From a virus: 26,989 nucleotides of DNA. Below are positions 4,869-15,459 of the stretch, one piece after another. The notes below the pieces were generated by a model that searched no databases, had not been told where the DNA came from, and saw only the letters and a program-made list of their open reading frames with translations. Both the position numbers and the translations under genes were made by a program. The stretch is from the UHGV virus genome UHGV-0205323; one strand, 5' to 3'. Positions within the stretch are counted from its first letter, which is position 1; the number at the start of each line of letters is the position of its first letter.

Positions 4869-5350
4869 CTGGACATGCAGCAATCCTCGACATGTGCTGT
4901 GGCAGTCGCATGTTCTGGTTCGATAAGAATGACGACCGGGCGATATTTAGTGATATCAGAAAGGAAGAGCACACATTGTGTGATGGACGACGCCTGATTA
5001 TCAGTCCTGACCTGATAGCTGATTTTCGTGCACTACCATTTGCAGACGCATCCTTTTCGATGGTTGTATTCGACCCTCCGCATCTTGAGCGTGTTGGTGA
5101 TAACGCTTGGATGGGAAAGAAATATGGACGGCTGAATAAAGATACCTGGCGTGATGATTTACGGCAGGGATTCAAAGAAGCCTTTCGTGTGTTGTGGCCA
5201 TACGGCGTTCTGATTTTTAAATGGAATGAAACGCAAATACCTGTTCGCCAGATATTGGCACTGACCGACAGAAAGCCTGTTATCGGTCAACGAACAGGAA
5301 AGGGTGACAAGACCCACTGGATTATTTTTATGAAGGAGGGCAACCAGTGA
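4865..5350 (+). CDS. putative SAM-dependent DNA methyltransferase (orphan, small)
   Basis: Motif I-like DMCCGSR followed about 65 residues later by DPPH (motif IV-like, as DPPY/F/W in amino-methyltransferases); likely GTG start at 4865 overlapping the upstream stop; no adjacent restriction endonuclease candidate. Confidence 0.55.
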   Translation: MTGHAAILDMCCGSRMFWFDKNDDRAIFSDIRKEEHTLCDGRRLIISPDLIADFRALPFADASFSMVVFDPPHLERVGDNAWMGKKYGRLNKDTWRDDLRQGFKEAFRVLWPYGVLIFKWNETQIPVRQILALTDRKPVIGQRTGKGDKTHWIIFMKEGNQ

Positions 5351-6973: not shown

Positions 6974-7016
6974 TGCCTGATTTGCAGGTTCGATTCCCTA
7001 TTCGGAGATAGCACTC

Positions 7017-7217
7017 ATGCAACACGAACTACAGCCTGATTCACTGGTTGATTTGAAATTCATCATGGCCGATACTGGCTTCGGTAAAACCTTCATCTAC
7101 GACCGGATTAAGTCCGGCGACCTGCCAAAAGCCAAAGTTATCCACGGGCGAGCAAGATGGTTATATCGTGACCATTGTGAATTCAAAAATAAGCTCTTAA
7201 GCCGCGCCAATGGGTAA
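7017..7217 (+). CDS. xis: excisionase-like DNA-binding protein (HTH_17/AlpA-type)
   Basis: 66-aa ORF immediately upstream of the integrase; pattern ...DRIKSGDLPKAKVIHGRARWLYRD... resembles the excisionase/AlpA winged-helix family. Confidence 0.6.
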   Translation: MQHELQPDSLVDLKFIMADTGFGKTFIYDRIKSGDLPKAKVIHGRARWLYRDHCEFKNKLLSRANG

Positions 7218-8751: not shown

Positions 8752-10413
8752 TTACCTCCATGCAACAATTGTAACTGGTATAGTTACTGACTGACTTGTA
8801 ACTATAAGTCCTGTTGTTGTATCAACAATTCTTATTGCAAACCCGGTAGAATTATAAGTGTCGGCGTATACTTGATATTTAAAAGGAGATGGTACTGCAC
8901 CTGAATGAAAATCAGGATGTATAATTACTTTTGAGGCATAAAAACCAATTGTAACTATACCTCCCGGATTAACTGTTGTTGTCGATATATAATCCGGCGA
9001 GTTGTGTATCTTATCGTTAACCCTTATTATCTTACCATTTCCAATCATGCTAAATATAGTAAATACACCATTTGGGTCATTAAGATAAACTGTTGCATTA
9101 TCTTCTACTCTTATATGACCTGCTGTTCCGTCATCATTAAGCAAGACAGGGTTGTTAATGTAAGTTACTGAATTTCCTCGACATCTAAAATGATAAAAAT
9201 TAGGTCCGTTTGGATTAACTCTATTGAAGTGTGGATTGTTATATGTGACTACTGAAGATGATGCTACCAGTATTGATTGTGTTCCTGCTGTCATTTTTCC
9301 ATCTGTAGAATCCATCTCAAAATTTGGTGAGTCGAAAACAACCCCGGTAGAGTTTGTATCAATATGATGGAAGTAAGAGTTATAAGACCCATCATGCCCC
9401 ATATTAAAATTAATCCACTTAGACCCCTTTACACCACGAAGTCTTAGTGCAAATGCTTTGAAGTTTGCCGCATAACAGTTTATATATGTATTTTCAATTA
9501 TCTGGCCGTTACTCGAAATATCAAAACCAATTCTATTCCCATTTGCTCTGATGTTTGTAAACACATTGGAGAAGTCAGCAGGACCAGCTTTATAACCAAC
9601 ATCAAAGTAGTCTAAATACATATTAGAGAAAGTGCAGTTTACTGTCTTATTTACTCCGGTAAGATCAAGACCAGAACCAGATCCAATTGGTTGACCTCCG
9701 CTAACGGCACCCTCAACAATTAAACCTATATTTGCTATTACTGTTCCTCTTAATTCATTTCCAGATGCAGATATTCCTGAAATCCCGCTAGGTGTTTTTA
9801 TGCTTGATGTAGATAGAGAATCACCAATTAATCCAAAATTATTCTTAAGTGAAATGTTACCTTCCCATTCCCCTGGAGGAACCTTAAGGGTAATGGGAAT
9901 GCTACCAGATGCTATATAATCATTTACCGGGGAAAGATCATTACCGATAACACCAAATCCTCTTATATCTCCTAATCTTCTATAATCAGTAATAGAAATA
10001 AAATCCTGAACGGACTCCCCAGTATCGTAACAAACTAAAGATGCTCCAATATTAGACGCAAGCCTTTTTTCAAGCTGATCCGGGTCGTACTTCAGTACAT
10101 TCGGAAAATAAAACTGCTGCGCACCGTACGCATCATAAACAGCCATAGAATGGCCTTGCACGGTAACGAATTTGGCAATCTGTCCGTTATATACAGGGTA
10201 ACCAGCAGCGTTAATGATGATTGGCTGGGATACAGGAACGTGAGAGCCGTCTTCGTTCTCCACATAAACCTGAATCTGGTTTTCAGGATTTACCGGGTCA
10301 GTGTCAATTTTACCGATATAAATTTTGCCATTGGCTACGGCTTTAAAAGAACGAGCCATAGTGAAGAGTTGCGAAGGCATCGATACGATCACATTGGCTG
10401 TAATGTCTGTCAT
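8752..10413 (-). CDS. tailspike protein: P22 gp9-like N-terminal head-binding domain fused to a divergent receptor-binding domain
   Basis: N-terminal ~110 aa ([11 protein letters not shown]...[22 protein letters not shown]...[13 protein letters not shown]...VLKYDPDQ) closely matches the P22 tailspike head-binding domain as recalled; the remainder is Gly/Asn/Ser/Thr-rich and unlike P22; last gene before the int-proximal end. Confidence 0.85.
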
Positions 10414-10513: not shown

Positions 10514-11404
10514 TCAGTAGTTATGTACTGAAGGAGGTAATTCTTTATTCTTAAGTCTCATCCATGCGGAAAGATTCGCTGGTCCGTCTGGCTCATTAAT
10601 ATCAACATCTCGTGTGTGGTTTATTAAAACGTCTCTCGCCATTCCGATAACATACGAGAACTCATGACCGTAGTCGTAGCATCTTCCGGAATAGTTCGAT
10701 TGAATTTGTTTTAACGCCGGATACAGTTCGCGGAATAATGCCTGTGAACGGTTGGCATAATCCCATAACCATACAAGACTGTTTGCTTCTTTTGCAGAAA
10801 GCTCGTTGGTCTTCTTCTCTTGTTTGCCGATAAACTCGCCTTCAAGCACTACCCTGTGGATGTACTCTACGGCCAGCGGGATTTGTTCAATTGAAAGTTC
10901 ATCAATGCTGTCAATACCAAAACGCTGATGAACCATATTGTATGCATCGTCATAGCGAAGTCCTTTCTTTCCTACCAGCATGTTTACTGCATCGCGTAGC
11001 GGTGTGCGTTCAGCTACTGAAGTTTTACCGCCAATAGCCTTCCTCTCTTGTGTGGTAGTAACCATTGCGTCATATGCACGGATAACCTTCAGCGCAAAGG
11101 CTGCGCTAATCCACATGGCGTAGGAGTAAACAAGCTCCTTGCACACGTAGGTTCCACCATATCTACCTTTCTTAGAAAGGACGGGATTCTTATTCTGCAT
11201 ATCCGCAGAATTAAAAATTTCATTAATCAATTCAATAGTTTCATTTCTACGCATGAAGAAAGCTGGCTGATGTTTTTCCTCCTTTCCAGACGCTACATGA
11301 AGGTCATTAAGCGAGTAACGACCCTCTGAATCCATATGAATCTTGACGTCAGAAATGATGATGCTATTAGTGCAATTTACAGTTGACTTTGCTAAGCTTG
11401 ACAT
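10514..11404 (-). CDS. ant: antirepressor Ant with KilA-N-type N-terminal domain
   Basis: 296-aa ORF downstream of arc on the same strand; N-terminal KilA-N-like pattern ([36 protein letters not shown]); position matches the P22 immI arc-ant arrangement. Confidence 0.65.
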
Positions 11405-11470
11405 ATCAATAATACCTCGTAAGTTTTGTTGATACCGAAGCCCTGACTGTTACAGCAGTTGGGGCTTCAA
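11377..11470 (+). ncRNA. candidate sar-like antisense RNA opposite the arc-ant junction and ant RBS
   Basis: Plus-strand terminator hairpin GAAGCCC...GGGCTTC followed by AACTTTTT (11434-11470) antisense to arc/ant; candidate promoter -35 TTGACG 11343-11348 with -10 TATTAG 11365-11370 inside the ant 5' end; 5' end uncertain. Confidence 0.3.
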
Positions 11471-11640
11471 CTTTTTGCTAGATTACCTTTAGAACTATCC
11501 CGCCTTAAACTATCCACTAACCGCATTACCATCTCGGTATTTATTGAGCGACCATTTTCTTTCGCTGACTTCTCGATTGCTAACTTAACCTCTAATGGGA
11601 TGCGCAAAGGGTACTTTGGTGCGTCTGACTTGACTATCAT
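11467..11640 (-). CDS. arc: Arc-like ribbon-helix-helix repressor
   Basis: 57-aa protein from ATG 11640 with GGAGGT RBS; PKYPLRIPLEVKLAIEKSAKENGRSINTEMVMRLVDSL parallels P22 Arc (PQFNLRWPREVLDLVRKVAEENGRSVNSEIYQRVMESF, recalled). Confidence 0.7.
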   Translation of the reverse strand: MIVKSDAPKYPLRIPLEVKLAIEKSAKENGRSINTEMVMRLVDSLRRDSSKGNLAKS

Positions 11641-11658
11641 ATTACCTCCAATCAACTT

Positions 11659-11728: not shown

Positions 11729-11965
11729 ATGTCACGCGAAGAGCCGCAAATAAATATCAGGATTTCCAAAGAGTTAAAGGCAAAGGTTAAAGCCAGGGCG
11801 CAACATAACAAGCGTTCCATGAATGCTGAAATAATACAGATTATCGAAGATGCTGTTTGTGGTAGATCGCTTAATAGCAATGAATTTGCTCAGAAAGAGG
11901 CTGACAAATTCAGGGATGCGCTACTTGAAACACTGAAAACCATGTATGGTAAGGATGAAAAATAA
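11729..11965 (+). CDS. mnt: Mnt-like ribbon-helix-helix repressor
   Basis: N-terminus MSREEPQINIRISKELKAKVKARAQHNKRSMNAEIIQIIEDAV parallels P22 Mnt (ARDDPHFNFRMPMEVREKLKFRAEANGRSMNSELLQIV, recalled); divergent from arc-ant. Confidence 0.75.
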   Translation: MSREEPQINIRISKELKAKVKARAQHNKRSMNAEIIQIIEDAVCGRSLNSNEFAQKEADKFRDALLETLKTMYGKDEK

Positions 11966-12501
11966 TGCTGCACACAATTCATTTCTTATGCCCCGTTAAC
12001 ACTGCCACTGTTGGGCAACTTCAGAACCACTGTCTCACCGCATTATCTCAAGGCGCAACTGAATTAAATATCCATATATCAAGTCAGGGAGGGGAAACTG
12101 CCGCTGGTTTTACTGCGTATAACTTTCTTAAGTCACTCCCTGTTACCGTTAGAACTCACAACATAAGCAATGTTGAATCCATAGCTAATATCGTTTTCCT
12201 GGCTGGCTCAGAACGTTTCGCAAACCCATTATCAAGATTCCTGTTACATCCTCTATTATGGGGCTTTGCCACCCCAGCCGCCGACCATGCCAGATTGAGA
12301 GAGTACGGGAAATGCCTCGATAACGATCTTGATCGCTTCGTTGAGACGTTCAATATCGACATCGGAACCCATATTAGGTGGGCATCCCTGATAGCAGACT
12401 CGACCATTTTGGATGCTAACAAGGCTCTTGAGCATGGCATAATTAATTCCATAAAAACTGCAAGGCTGGTATCCAATCAGGCAAACTGGTGGGTTGTTTG
12501 A
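11965..12501 (+). CDS. ClpP-fold serine peptidase-like protein, translationally coupled to mnt
   Basis: ATG overlaps the mnt stop (TAATG); sequence aligns by eye to the E. coli ClpP core (IHISSQGGETAAGFTAYNFL vs [20 protein letters not shown]; Ser in SNVESIANI at the GQAASMGA position; His in FLLHPL at the MIHQP position; C-terminal LEHGIINSI vs VEYGLVDSI). Confidence 0.6.
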   Translation: MLHTIHFLCPVNTATVGQLQNHCLTALSQGATELNIHISSQGGETAAGFTAYNFLKSLPVTVRTHNISNVESIANIVFLAGSERFANPLSRFLLHPLLWGFATPAADHARLREYGKCLDNDLDRFVETFNIDIGTHIRWASLIADSTILDANKALEHGIINSIKTARLVSNQANWWVV

Positions 12502-12578
12502 TGGGTAAATCATGATTACTCCTATGGCAGGAAAGATTCGCATCCTTAAATTTAGTGAGCAAGGATTACCATCACACC

Positions 12579-12764
12579 TTAACAGCCTCCGCGTCCACGA
12601 GTAATTCTATTGCGGATTTGCTTCTTGCGGTGGTTTAAGCTGGAGAGCCTGGCTTCTGCTTCTGATATTTGCGCATCAAGATCTTTAAGCTCAAGATCTG
12701 AAAGTCGCTGGTCAAGCAGGGTTTGGTTCAACTCAATGTTGTTCAGGCGTTCTTCTATGGTCAT
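12579..12764 (-). CDS. small coiled-coil protein (61 aa), hypothetical
   Basis: AAGGAG RBS 5 nt upstream of ATG 12764; heptad-like Leu-rich sequence; start lies immediately downstream of the lipoprotein-gene terminator. Confidence 0.45.
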   Translation of the reverse strand: MTIEERLNNIELNQTLLDQRLSDLELKDLDAQISEAEARLSSLNHRKKQIRNRITRGRGGC

Positions 12765-12772
12765 GATTACTC

Positions 12773-12802
12773 CTTATAAAAAACCCACCTGACGGTGGGT
12801 TT
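12773..12802 (-). terminator. rho-independent terminator downstream of the lipoprotein gene (minus strand)
   Basis: Perfect 9-bp stem AAACCCACC / GGTGGGTTT with 4-nt loop, followed on the minus strand by TTTTTTAT. Confidence 0.6.
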
Positions 12803-12808
12803 CATTTC

Positions 12809-13240
12809 TTAATCTTGCTTTGTAGACGGTATAAGGGATGCGTTTGCCTCTTTTGGCTTCAAGGTATACATCCCACCATTAAATGGATCAACAGCAAGCC
12901 AACCAATTAACCCACCAAACACAAGGTTTCCACCAATATACCAACCATTAGCATTGGCTTTGATTGGCAGGGTAACTGGTTCGTACCCATCCTTCTCCAT
13001 AGTGATCTGGTAGCTCTTTTTGCCAAAATAACTACCATCTGACTTGGCAAGAGTTACTCCTTGCGGGGTCTTACCTTGCGCAACAATCACGCCTGATTCG
13101 TCTTTTACCTTAAAGCTCGCACCGGAAGGATTGCTGTTCACTTGCACAAGCTGTGTTTCGTCACCAACAATAGTTGCGCACCCAGATAACATGATAGCGC
13201 CAGCAACGACGCTAATAATCCTCTTCATATCAATTTCCAT
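12809..13240 (-). CDS. lipoprotein (signal peptide with lipobox LSGC); candidate superinfection-exclusion or surface-modifying moron
   Basis: N-terminus MKRIISVVAGAIMLSG-C has a type II signal peptide and lipobox; Gly-rich C-terminal segment WYIGGNLVFGGLIGWLAVDPFNGGMY; followed by its own terminator; alternative start ATG 13228. Confidence 0.6.
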   Translation of the reverse strand: MEIDMKRIISVVAGAIMLSGCATIVGDETQLVQVNSNPSGASFKVKDESGVIVAQGKTPQGVTLAKSDGSYFGKKSYQITMEKDGYEPVTLPIKANANGWYIGGNLVFGGLIGWLAVDPFNGGMYTLKPKEANASLIPSTKQD

Positions 13241-13323: not shown

Positions 13324-15459
13324 TTACTCCTGTGTCATTCCGCTTAGCGATGCCACAATCCCAGCCCTCGACAAACGCTGGAACTCTTCGTTTCCTAATG
13401 CATCGCGAATTGCTTTTACGGCGGCCTTATTTGCCATAAATCTGCGTTCCGCCGCCGCTAATGCGCCATCACTTGCCCCAACCTTAACTGCCTTTGTTGC
13501 CTCTTGAACAGCCTTTTCAATAGCGTAACGACCACTTCTGGTTGCGGATAATTTCGCTATCGATCCTTTTGCTATCGCATCAATTGCTCCACCTGCAGCG
13601 CCACCAACTATTGCTCCAATAACACCTCCTCCAGAGAACCCTGCGATAGCGCCAGCGGTTGGAAAAGCGCCAGACAATACGCTCTCTAAAACTGGATGAA
13701 GGCCATTCTCAAGAGTGCTAATGGCTGGCATAGAGCGCCCTGTCTGTTCAACATATCGAAGTGGCTTTGTTGCAGCTCTTGCAAGTTCTCCGTATGAACT
13801 TGTAATCCTGCCAAGTTCTGGAGAATATCGACTAATTGCCTTCACGTTTTGTGGGGTAAGAATAGTCGCGATATGCTTAATTCCAGCCTCTTCAGACTTA
13901 CCTCCGCGTACCCCTTGCGATACCGCATCTTGTAATATTGATGCAATTGCTGGCGCGCGTTCCGACTCAGGTAGGGCGCTTATTATTTTATGAAACTGAC
14001 CTGTTCCACTTTTTGCTGAGCCCTGTAACGCCTTAGAGCCATTAGTTACTAACTGATCAGTTGCAAGGTCTCTACCAAACGCTGCTTCAGCCTGTTCTTG
14101 TGCTGTAAATCTTGCTTTTGACAGATCATTAGCTTTTTGCCAGTCATCAAGAAAACCGCCATTTTGAGCCATTATGCGCATATCTTCCGTTGCTGCATCA
14201 CGAAGCTCAGCCATGCGCCTTGCCGTATTTGCCTCACCAGACCTTATATACTTCTGCTCTGCGTCAGCAAGTTTACTTCGCCATGCCTTCATGGCATCAA
14301 ACGTGATTCCTTTTTTACCAGTTTTAGCATAAGCAGATGCGAATTGTTTCATCTCAGGAGTTAGCGGCATGCCAGCCAAAATATCACCCTGAATTGTAGC
14401 GTTCAGGTTTGACATTCTGGCCTTTGCGTCAGGCATCGTGGAGCGGACGCTATCCCATGCAGCCTTTTCTGAATTTTTCATTTTATCAATACTTGCCAAA
14501 ACCCTTTGTTTTATGGCTGCACTTTTTTCTGATGCAGTTCCTGCTTCAGCCCCAAACTCATCCAATGCTGAGTTAAATTTCGACTCTATTTCACTGAATG
14601 CTTTGGTGTGTGCATCCTGTGTAATTCCGGGCTTTGACGCCAGAATCCCCTCCGCCTGAGCAAGACCACGACTACCTGATCTCATGCCAGGAGTTAATGC
14701 GTTGATATCTATTCCAGCAGTATCTGCTGCTTTTGCTATTTCGTCTGACACATTAGCTGACTGTCTGGCAATAATCTCTCTTCCTGTACCAGACTTTGCC
14801 ATTTTCGAAACATCAGCAGCGGAATTTATTGCCCCGCCACCAAGAACTTGAGGTGATTTAGAGGTTAAGATCCTTCCAGCCCCAGAAAGTATCCCCTGAG
14901 TACCAATATTGATACCACCGTTAATGGCAGCATTTTGTGCAAAATCGCCCTCCTGATTTGCAGCATCAGCAAGAGAACCGGCAATCATGTTTCCTGCGGA
15001 ACCGATATCTCCAGCGAGCTTTGCTGTCGCTCCAGCAGCTTTTGCCGCTGTGCCAATTGGCAGGAGATACCCACCAATTGTTTCACCGGCTTGCGCATAA
15101 GGGTCTGTCGGTCTGTCTACTGGACGATAAACATCATCCAAAACCTTGGGTCCACCAAGCCCCTGACTGATTGCATTAATCAGACTTGCGCCGCCCTGCA
15201 ATACGTCAAATGGTATGTTTACCAGACCACGACCAGCCTGTTCTGCAATTTGCCCTGCACTTTGACCACCAGTGAGCCAATCGCCAGCTTGTTGCATCAA
15301 TGATGGTTCTTCCCGTGTTGGTGCATTATTGGCCTGATTAACTGTTTGTTGCTGAACAGCCTGACCAGCAAAATACTCATCAATGGCGGTGCCAATATCT
15401 TCCGTGCTCGTACCATCAGGGAAGGTAAATGTCTTACCGTTTGCAGTTACTTTCATCAT
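13324..15459 (-). CDS. ejection (internal virion) protein, P22 gp16-like
   Basis: 711-aa Ala/Gly-rich protein in the position of P22 gene 16 after gp7 and gp20; start overlaps the gp20 stop; assignment by synteny and composition. Confidence 0.65.

Follow-up and report, generated by a model that had tools for sequence, protein, structure and literature searches.

Introduction

The ant moron of P22-like phages, i.e., the immI region with mnt, arc, ant and sar, has been described as an insert in the late operon that varies greatly (Villafane et al. 2008, PMC2629481). Polymerases that initiate at P_late transcribe through this insert into the tailspike gene (PMC2629481; PMC8022706), and the antiterminated late polymerase reads through the terminators within the late operon (PMC2629481). 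According to the Hendrix/Juhala definition quoted in the same work, a moron is an extra gene in otherwise syntenic phages (PMC2629481). As for the genes that occupy the slot considered here, the epsilon34 paper is the only literature that we found.

Here, we analyse orf61, a 61-codon reading frame of the virus genome UHGV-0205323 (26,989 nt; this whole stretch of DNA is referred to below as the window), and we show that it is an accessory gene, optional in relatives, located in the ant moron of a P22-like prophage.

Results

Genomic setting of orf61

The minus strand of the window carries the terminase, portal, scaffold, coat and ejection genes down to a gp16-like gene (13324-15459), and the series continues uninterrupted to the tailspike: the gp16-like gene is followed by a lipoprotein gene (12809-13228), orf61 (12579-12764), arc (11467-11655), ant (10514-11404) and the tailspike gene (8752-10413). 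The sar antisense RNA is present in full length between arc and ant (11406-11472, plus strand; Rfam RF00262, 67.4 bits), hence the immI circuit of the prophage looks complete. The plus strand also carries a Mnt-like ribbon-helix-helix gene (11729-11965) and, as the last member of the Pmnt operon, a gene for a ClpP-like protein of 178 aa (11965-12501; Pfam CLP_protease, 4.3e-12, 46.7 bits), whose ATG overlaps the stop codon of the Mnt-like gene (TAATG). Given this translational coupling, the ClpP-like gene should be expressed from Pmnt in the lysogen, which would make the prophage co-express a stand-alone ClpP-like protein with its maintenance repressor. The models that its product matches, CLP_protease and ClpP-related head-maturation protease, are hit with scores under their curated cut-offs.

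The lipoprotein gene (minus strand) encodes a lipobox, LSGC, shows a weak, below-threshold match to PEGA, belongs to phrog_6823 and is a homologue of epsilon34 gp15; a promoter-like site lies upstream of it at 13287-13259. The signal-peptide region weakly resembles that of the Cor exclusion lipoprotein, and with its own promoter-like site and a terminator the gene has the appearance of a classic moron, possibly coding for a superinfection-exclusion factor.

The position of orf61 in the late operon is the same wherever it could be compared: gp16 lies upstream and co-oriented in 67 of 67 loci and gp20 in 44 of 44, while downstream Ant is co-oriented in 64 of 64 loci and the tailspike in 68 of 68.

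The orf61 reading frame, its start signal and the adjoining terminator

On the minus strand, orf61 runs from an ATG at 12764-12762 to a TAA at 12581-12579 and encodes the 61-aa product MTIEERLNNIELNQTLLDQRLSDLELKDLDAQISEAEARLSSLNHRKKQIRNRITRGRGGC, in which 10 of the 61 residues are leucine and 5 are isoleucine. Its Shine-Dalgarno sequence, AAGGAG (12770-12775, minus strand), is separated from the ATG by the 5-nt spacer TAATC, and 77 bp (12502-12578) lie between its stop codon and that of the convergent ClpP-like gene. The size of the frame is by itself unremarkable, since the surrounding 4.5 kb is overlapped by 45 ORFs of at least 30 aa.

The terminator scan and folding identified a bidirectional intrinsic terminator at 12778-12802 (stem 12781-12802, loop 12790-12793). 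Its hairpin, AAACCCACC-GUCA-GGUGGGUUU when read from 12802 to 12781, starts 6 nt past the stop codon (12809-12811) of the lipoprotein gene. Its U-run on the minus strand ends 2 nt (AU) before the AAGGAG of orf61, and on the plus strand the hairpin is followed by CAUUUCUU. The centroid fold has a 10-bp stem; the minimum free energy of the 71-nt segment is -18 kcal/mol on the minus strand (z = -3.1), and the plus-strand fold reaches -14.2 kcal/mol (z about -3). The same terminator is annotated in epsilon34 and Emek. Thus, the features that an earlier note on this DNA had pointed out, i.e., the 61-codon frame with AAGGAG 5 nt before its ATG, the T-run of the upstream terminator reaching the RBS and the interval of about 77 bp between the two stops, can all be read directly in the sequence.

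Conservation and selection

The relatives of orf61 were assembled as 42 protein clusters and 64 IMG/VR loci, to which contigs of diverged relatives (72-77% identical; from Serratia, Salmonella and metagenomes) were added. A scan of genome contigs gave 590 pattern matches, none of which was confirmed; the diversity analysed is therefore drawn from IMG/VR and from the contigs that encode the relatives.

Among 53 distinct DNA alleles, pN/pS of the orf61 frame is 0.155, as against 0.95, 1.49, 1.53 and 2.20 in four other frames. The remaining value, 0.33, belongs to the antisense frame that shares its wobble positions with orf61, and it is the artefact to be expected from this sharing; the antisense 60-codon ORF (12610-12792, plus strand) was rejected as a true gene, being interrupted by stops in 50 of the 53 alleles. 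The orf61 sense frame is open in all 53. Comparisons with three relatives that are 72-77% identical (L070, L072 and L073) gave dN/dS of 0.13-0.16 at pS of 0.55-0.67, and the length of 61 aa, the start and the stop are preserved down to about 70% identity. Moreover, an SD-like motif (AAGGAG, TAAGGT, TAAGGA, AGAGG or AGGA) precedes the ATG in all context types, and it is kept even though the sequences further upstream are unrelated between contexts. Residues 17-30 of the product (LDQRLSDLELKDLD) are invariant while being encoded by 2-4 synonymous codons per position; hence, the constraint acts on the protein, and a nucleotide-level element was rejected as the cause of the invariant core. No Rfam family overlaps orf61. 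These results establish orf61 as a genuine conserved gene under purifying selection in its frame. They also bear out the proposal that the ORF is a translated small coiled-coil gene, for which a synonymous-site analysis had been suggested as the check: the frame has not been lost in any allele.

Family, distribution and annotation

The orf61 product matches the phrog_7586 HMM over its entire length (E = 3.6e-43, 146 bits; residues 1-61 on profile positions 1-61 of 61), as do the diverged homologues P0032 and P0038. The gene is already catalogued and is not new: it corresponds to phrog_7586, to orf61 of Salmonella phage vB_SemP_Emek (AFM54335.1) and Kapi1_061 of Escherichia phage Kapi1, both Lederbergvirus, and to hypothetical proteins annotated by PGAP. 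The orthologues from Emek, Kapi1 and RefSeq (WP_027662151.1, WP_089584295.1) match it in full length with 93-95% identity and share its position in the ant moron and its orientation; the protein of the window differs from the commonest allele only by K39R, Q56R and S60G.

The gene is present in 130 of 5,426 complete E. coli genomes. A tblastn search across 50,697 phage records returned only Emek, Kapi1 and S.Kent 1-2-1; P22, epsilon34 and phiv205-1 lack orf61. A profile search of 1.84 billion representative proteins recovered only the orf61 family and one repeat protein (E = 6.7e-5); the family is therefore a narrow one, restricted to P22-like prophages of enterobacteria.

In some records (Kapi1 and some RefSeq entries) the gene is called with an N-terminal extension, at 89-92 aa, and labelled "XhlA family". 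This extension belongs to a single upstream context, in which it overlaps a divergent gene, and is not conserved elsewhere. Proteins of the XhlA family possess a C-terminal hydrophobic/transmembrane segment after the coiled coil, and their profile has 67 positions. The orf61 product is similar to Haemolysin XhlA (PF10779) in being a short protein with a coiled-coil segment and in its weak similarity to profile positions 2-48, but it differs in having no C-terminal hydrophobic segment, its C-terminus being HRKKQIRNRITRGRGGC with a net charge of +7 and its structural model one helix of soluble type. Membership was rejected: the extended calls P0002 and P0003 score 12.5-12.9 bits (E = 0.13-0.17) against a gathering cut-off of 34.7, and the 61-aa product has no XhlA match in Pfam at E<0.1. 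Both the haemolysin label and the 89-92-aa calls are thus unsupported, and the conserved unit is the 61-aa protein.

Several database entries (P0040, P0039, P0042, P0029 and P0024) are chimeric or frameshifted orf61 alleles. In P0040, residues 1-28 of orf61 are fused to the last ~30 residues of Ant, which implies that the entire mnt-arc-ant block was deleted between a pair of short motifs resembling each other (LKDLD / RDVDI). Additionally, one Salmonella prophage (L071) carries two orf61 paralogues, at 5001-5177 (58 aa) and 6983-7168 (61 aa), in a single ant moron; they are about 1.8 kb apart, and the intervening cargo includes a SocA_Panacea-domain gene.

A proposed mosaic module of terminator, RBS and reading frame

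The junction between hairpin and RBS is identical in about 21 of 72 loci, in which it stands behind differing 5' sequences, and the gene upstream of it varies (the lipoprotein gene, Emek orf161 and others). As the junction stays constant behind unrelated 5' sequences, the terminator travels with orf61; it is not really the lipoprotein gene's own. In other contexts, a divergent gene (sieA-like, Kapi1_060 and others) starts only ~25 nt upstream of orf61.

In the alignment with phiv205-1, the boundaries of the insertion are marked by a 14-nt direct repeat, TCATGATTACTCCT. One copy (12761-12774) reads AGGAGTAATCATGA on the minus strand and comprises the RBS and the start codon of orf61, while the other lies at 12510-12523. 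In phiv205-1, EC.P3 and E212, orf61 is precisely absent, and the terminator-AAGGAGTAATCATGA directly adjoins the ClpP-like gene at its 3' end; compared with these three, the window has 251 extra bp, bounded by equivalent positions of the two repeat copies. The repeat is thus a clean example of a mosaic junction. We suggest that the terminator, the RBS and orf61 would form one mosaic module, which recombination may put behind different upstream genes.

Carried along with orf61 is a tail (12524-12578), which extends for ~55-63 nt past the orf61 stop and shows no stable structure or terminator (z=+1.2); it derives from the 3' end of orf69 (phrog_16466), of which it is a diverged remnant. On the plus strand, the tail belongs to a 30-codon ORF (12512-12604) that overlaps the 3' end of orf61 by 26 nt; orf69 itself, the usual convergent neighbour of orf61, overlaps it by 26 nt as well. 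The second repeat copy, AGGAGTAATCATG, with an ATG at 12515-12513, heads an 84-codon ORF (12256-12527, minus strand) antisense to the ClpP-like gene, and in phiv205-1 this antisense ORF stands directly behind the terminator and a strong RBS.

Neighbouring genes

The earlier note had seen a hint that orf61 might act on the neighbouring genes as a regulator or adaptor, and had proposed co-occurrence with the lipoprotein and ClpP-like genes as a check. No consistent association emerged. The lipoprotein gene lies directly upstream in 8 of 72 copies of orf61 and the ClpP-like gene directly downstream in 11, and both flanks occur together in 1 of the 72 only, that of the window. Seen from the other side, a ClpP-like gene is present in 128 complete E. 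coli genomes, of which 9 have the ClpP-orf61 junction. The commonest neighbour is orf69 (69 aa), found directly downstream in 43 of 72 copies, and an mnt-type gene is located within 2.5 kb in 68 of 72. The adaptor idea is therefore contradicted by co-occurrence and largely refuted, and the target of orf61 is not the adjacent lipoprotein or the ClpP-like protein.

The predicted protein

The product of orf61 (7 kDa) is predicted to form a single uninterrupted amphipathic helix that contains two heptad segments. In the AlphaFold2 monomer prediction, the helix spans residues 3-59 with a mean pLDDT of 93.9. Once a single register shift at residues 24-26 is allowed, 13 of the 16 L, I, V or M residues occupy a/d positions, which none of 2000 shuffled sequences equalled; with one fixed heptad register the signal is only marginal (818 of 20000 shuffles). 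The description of a Leu-rich heptad protein thus holds with this one shift. The charge is unevenly distributed, with a net -6 (pI 4.1) in residues 1-43 and +7 in residues 44-61. Many polar residues are invariant (E4, E5, R6, E11, Q14, D18, Q19, R20, S22, E25 and K27), which points to a specific binding surface, and neither a signal peptide nor a transmembrane segment was detected. Judging from these properties of the sequence, the protein may act as a coiled-coil oligomer, its charge dipole would favour antiparallel pairing, and it could bind a partner through the invariant LDQRLSDLELKDLD stretch.

No homologue of established function was found by Pfam, phrog, NCBIfam, PADLOC, PDB, Foldseek or profile searches. 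The Pfam hits were noise (DUF3847 and MscS_porin, E about 0.01), as were those of NCBIfam, and PADLOC gave nothing above the coiled-coil noise to PbeC/JetC. Foldseek comparison of the model with BFVD and PDB returned 0 matches, and the PDB profile search found only generic leucine zippers. To these, exemplified by the HY5 bZIP zipper (2oqq), the orf61 product is similar in its Leu/Ile heptads, its single long helix and an adjoining basic segment, but this resemblance (E = 0.006 over 32 residues) is one of composition, and the basic segment is C-terminal to the zipper, whereas in bZIP proteins it is N-terminal.

Upstream signals for transcription

In none of four contexts (the window, Kapi1, L070 and L072) was a sigma-70-like promoter found upstream of orf61 in its own direction. 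The scan was consensus-based and crude, so that weak or non-canonical promoters could escape it; Pant/Pmnt of L070 were picked up by it. Within about 25-45 nt upstream of orf61 there is either a terminator or the start codon of a divergent gene. We rejected a compact promoter between the terminator and the RBS: there is no room for it. A TATAAG overlaps the U-run, but no -35 match was seen, and a transcription start at this place would remove the RBS of orf61. Hence, of the two routes by which orf61 had been thought to be expressed, readthrough of the terminator is plausible, given that no promoter was found in four contexts and that the gene has the sense orientation in the late operon, while a compact promoter is unlikely. 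On the opposite strand, neither the terminator scan nor folding revealed a terminator or a stable structure in the interval from the ClpP-like stop to the hairpin; since no terminator precedes the hairpin at 12781, a Pmnt transcript would run antisense over all of orf61.

Discussion

In this study, we considered how a conserved gene whose RBS directly follows a strong terminator might be expressed and what it might serve. Its sense orientation, the promoter scan and the literature on read-through from P_late lead us to regard orf61 as probably, though far from certainly, a passenger of the late operon: a mosaic module with a coiled-coil product, having no promoter of its own, expressed by late read-through during lytic growth and quiet in the lysogen. 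During lytic growth, Q/gp23-modified polymerase coming from P_late would pass the hairpin and make orf61 mRNA (the Q/gp23 gene lies outside the window), and the strong RBS right after the terminator would permit efficient translation. In the lysogen, the hairpin would stop the transcripts from the lipoprotein moron promoter (site 13287-13259) and, in the plus-strand direction, would end the Pmnt operon transcript after its antisense run across the whole of orf61; both effects would keep orf61 quiet. The abutment of terminator and RBS recurs in the module, and antitermination in the late operon explains it better than a special regulatory device would.

Published transcriptome data on Kapi1 bear on this model. 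In RNA-seq of the Kapi1 lysogen, Kapi1_061 is not among the undetected genes (PMC12922286), which implies some transcript in lysogen cultures and counts against a gene that is quiet in the lysogen; the authors ascribe the signal of lytic genes in the lysogen to spontaneous induction (PMC12922286). In the same data mnt (Kapi1_063) was not detected, which surprised the authors (PMC12922286). If this is general, some phages may have little Pmnt transcription running antisense over orf61.

Several other roles were weighed against that of a late-operon passenger. It is scarcely credible that orf61 is no gene at all, i.e., an ORF arisen by chance in the antisense 3' UTR of the mnt operon transcript, or else an element that acts at the nucleotide level (an sRNA or a recombination linker, for instance). 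Short ORFs abound in the region, the stretch is probably transcribed antisense from Pmnt and it acts as a mosaic boundary; against this, the purifying selection is strong and specific to one frame, synonymous changes occur at the invariant residues, the sense frame is always open while the antisense frame is broken, the SD is conserved and no Rfam family overlaps, so that the substitution pattern already refutes the idea. A coiled-coil protein can serve as an adaptor, and in the window orf61 adjoins both the lipoprotein and the ClpP-like gene. Even so, we regard it as very improbable that it serves as a regulator or adaptor of either or both, e.g., as a substrate adaptor of the protease. Apart from the scattered flanks described above and the prevalence of an unrelated 69-aa gene as neighbour (43 of 72 loci), the lipoprotein and ClpP-like genes commonly occur together without orf61 (in the 72%-coverage matches and in phiv205-1), and epsilon34 has the lipoprotein without it.

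More serious, yet in our opinion unlikely, is that orf61 is a lysogenic-conversion moron, expressed in the lysogen by leakage of the terminator or from an unrecognised compact promoter and serving the host or prophage, e.g., by excluding superinfecting phages or in defence, as its frequent neighbour sieA does. Its location in a moron hot spot with sieA-like, Cor-like lipoprotein and Panacea-domain genes would fit, a strong RBS could offset low transcript levels, and the Kapi1_061 signal in the lysogen is in favour (PMC12922286). Speaking against it are the lack of a promoter-like site in the four contexts scanned, the strong terminator directly upstream in about 30% of loci and the convergent lysogenic Pmnt transcript, which would cover orf61 antisense; the protein, moreover, has no PADLOC match above noise and no signal peptide or transmembrane segment. 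We are more sceptical still of an accessory function in immI, by which orf61 would modulate the Mnt/Arc/Ant circuit, e.g., by hetero-oligomerising, in lytic growth, with the tetramerisation domain of Mnt. This domain is a C-terminal coiled coil, and orf61 not only has an mnt-type gene nearby in most loci but normally lies right next to the mnt operon, at its 3' end. This association may, however, reflect position alone, the slot being defined by immI; the adjacent Mnt is of at least three sequence types (Mnt78_win, Emek_mnt and P22_mnt) while orf61 is nearly constant, P22 and epsilon34 run immI without orf61, and we saw no sequence similarity between the orf61 product and Mnt. An excludon-like switch is a similarly doubtful proposition: in the lysogen the mnt-operon transcript, unterminated up to the shared hairpin, would cover orf61 antisense and silence it, whereas after induction the late transcript would silence mnt and make Orf61, a late coiled-coil effector that would neutralise a partner (the Mnt tetramerisation domain, another immI component or a host factor) through its LDQRLSDLELKDLD face. 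Should Orf61 indeed antagonise immI or a host factor specifically in the late phase, this would be a small addition to a classic regulatory region.

Beyond annotation, where it provides the correct gene call in a narrow family, orf61 is of little importance. The terminator-RBS-ORF module nevertheless illustrates how, within one operon, a lysogenically expressed moron can be set apart by an intrinsic terminator from a late-only gene downstream.

The same slot is occupied elsewhere by other late-sense genes, namely a 125-aa ORF of P22 (between sieA and orf59a) and gene 15 of epsilon34 (PMC2629481). They have no sequence similarity to orf61, but they follow gene 16 and sieA, precede the convergent mnt operon, have the same orientation and are likewise variably present. 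The P22 ORF (125 codons; NC_002371, L074, 2850-3227, plus strand; phrog_1365, E=7.8e-40) is missing from the RefSeq annotation and is probably the hkcC of the epsilon34 paper. With regard to the definition of a moron, orf61 is present or absent among syntenic relatives, as a moron should be, while a promoter of its own was not found by the consensus-based scan. In a classic moron, the gene is preceded by a promoter of its own and followed by a terminator; in orf61, by contrast, the terminator is located upstream and abuts the RBS. Its variable presence, its insertion in the late operon and its associated intrinsic terminator are features that orf61 shares with the lambdoid late-operon morons.
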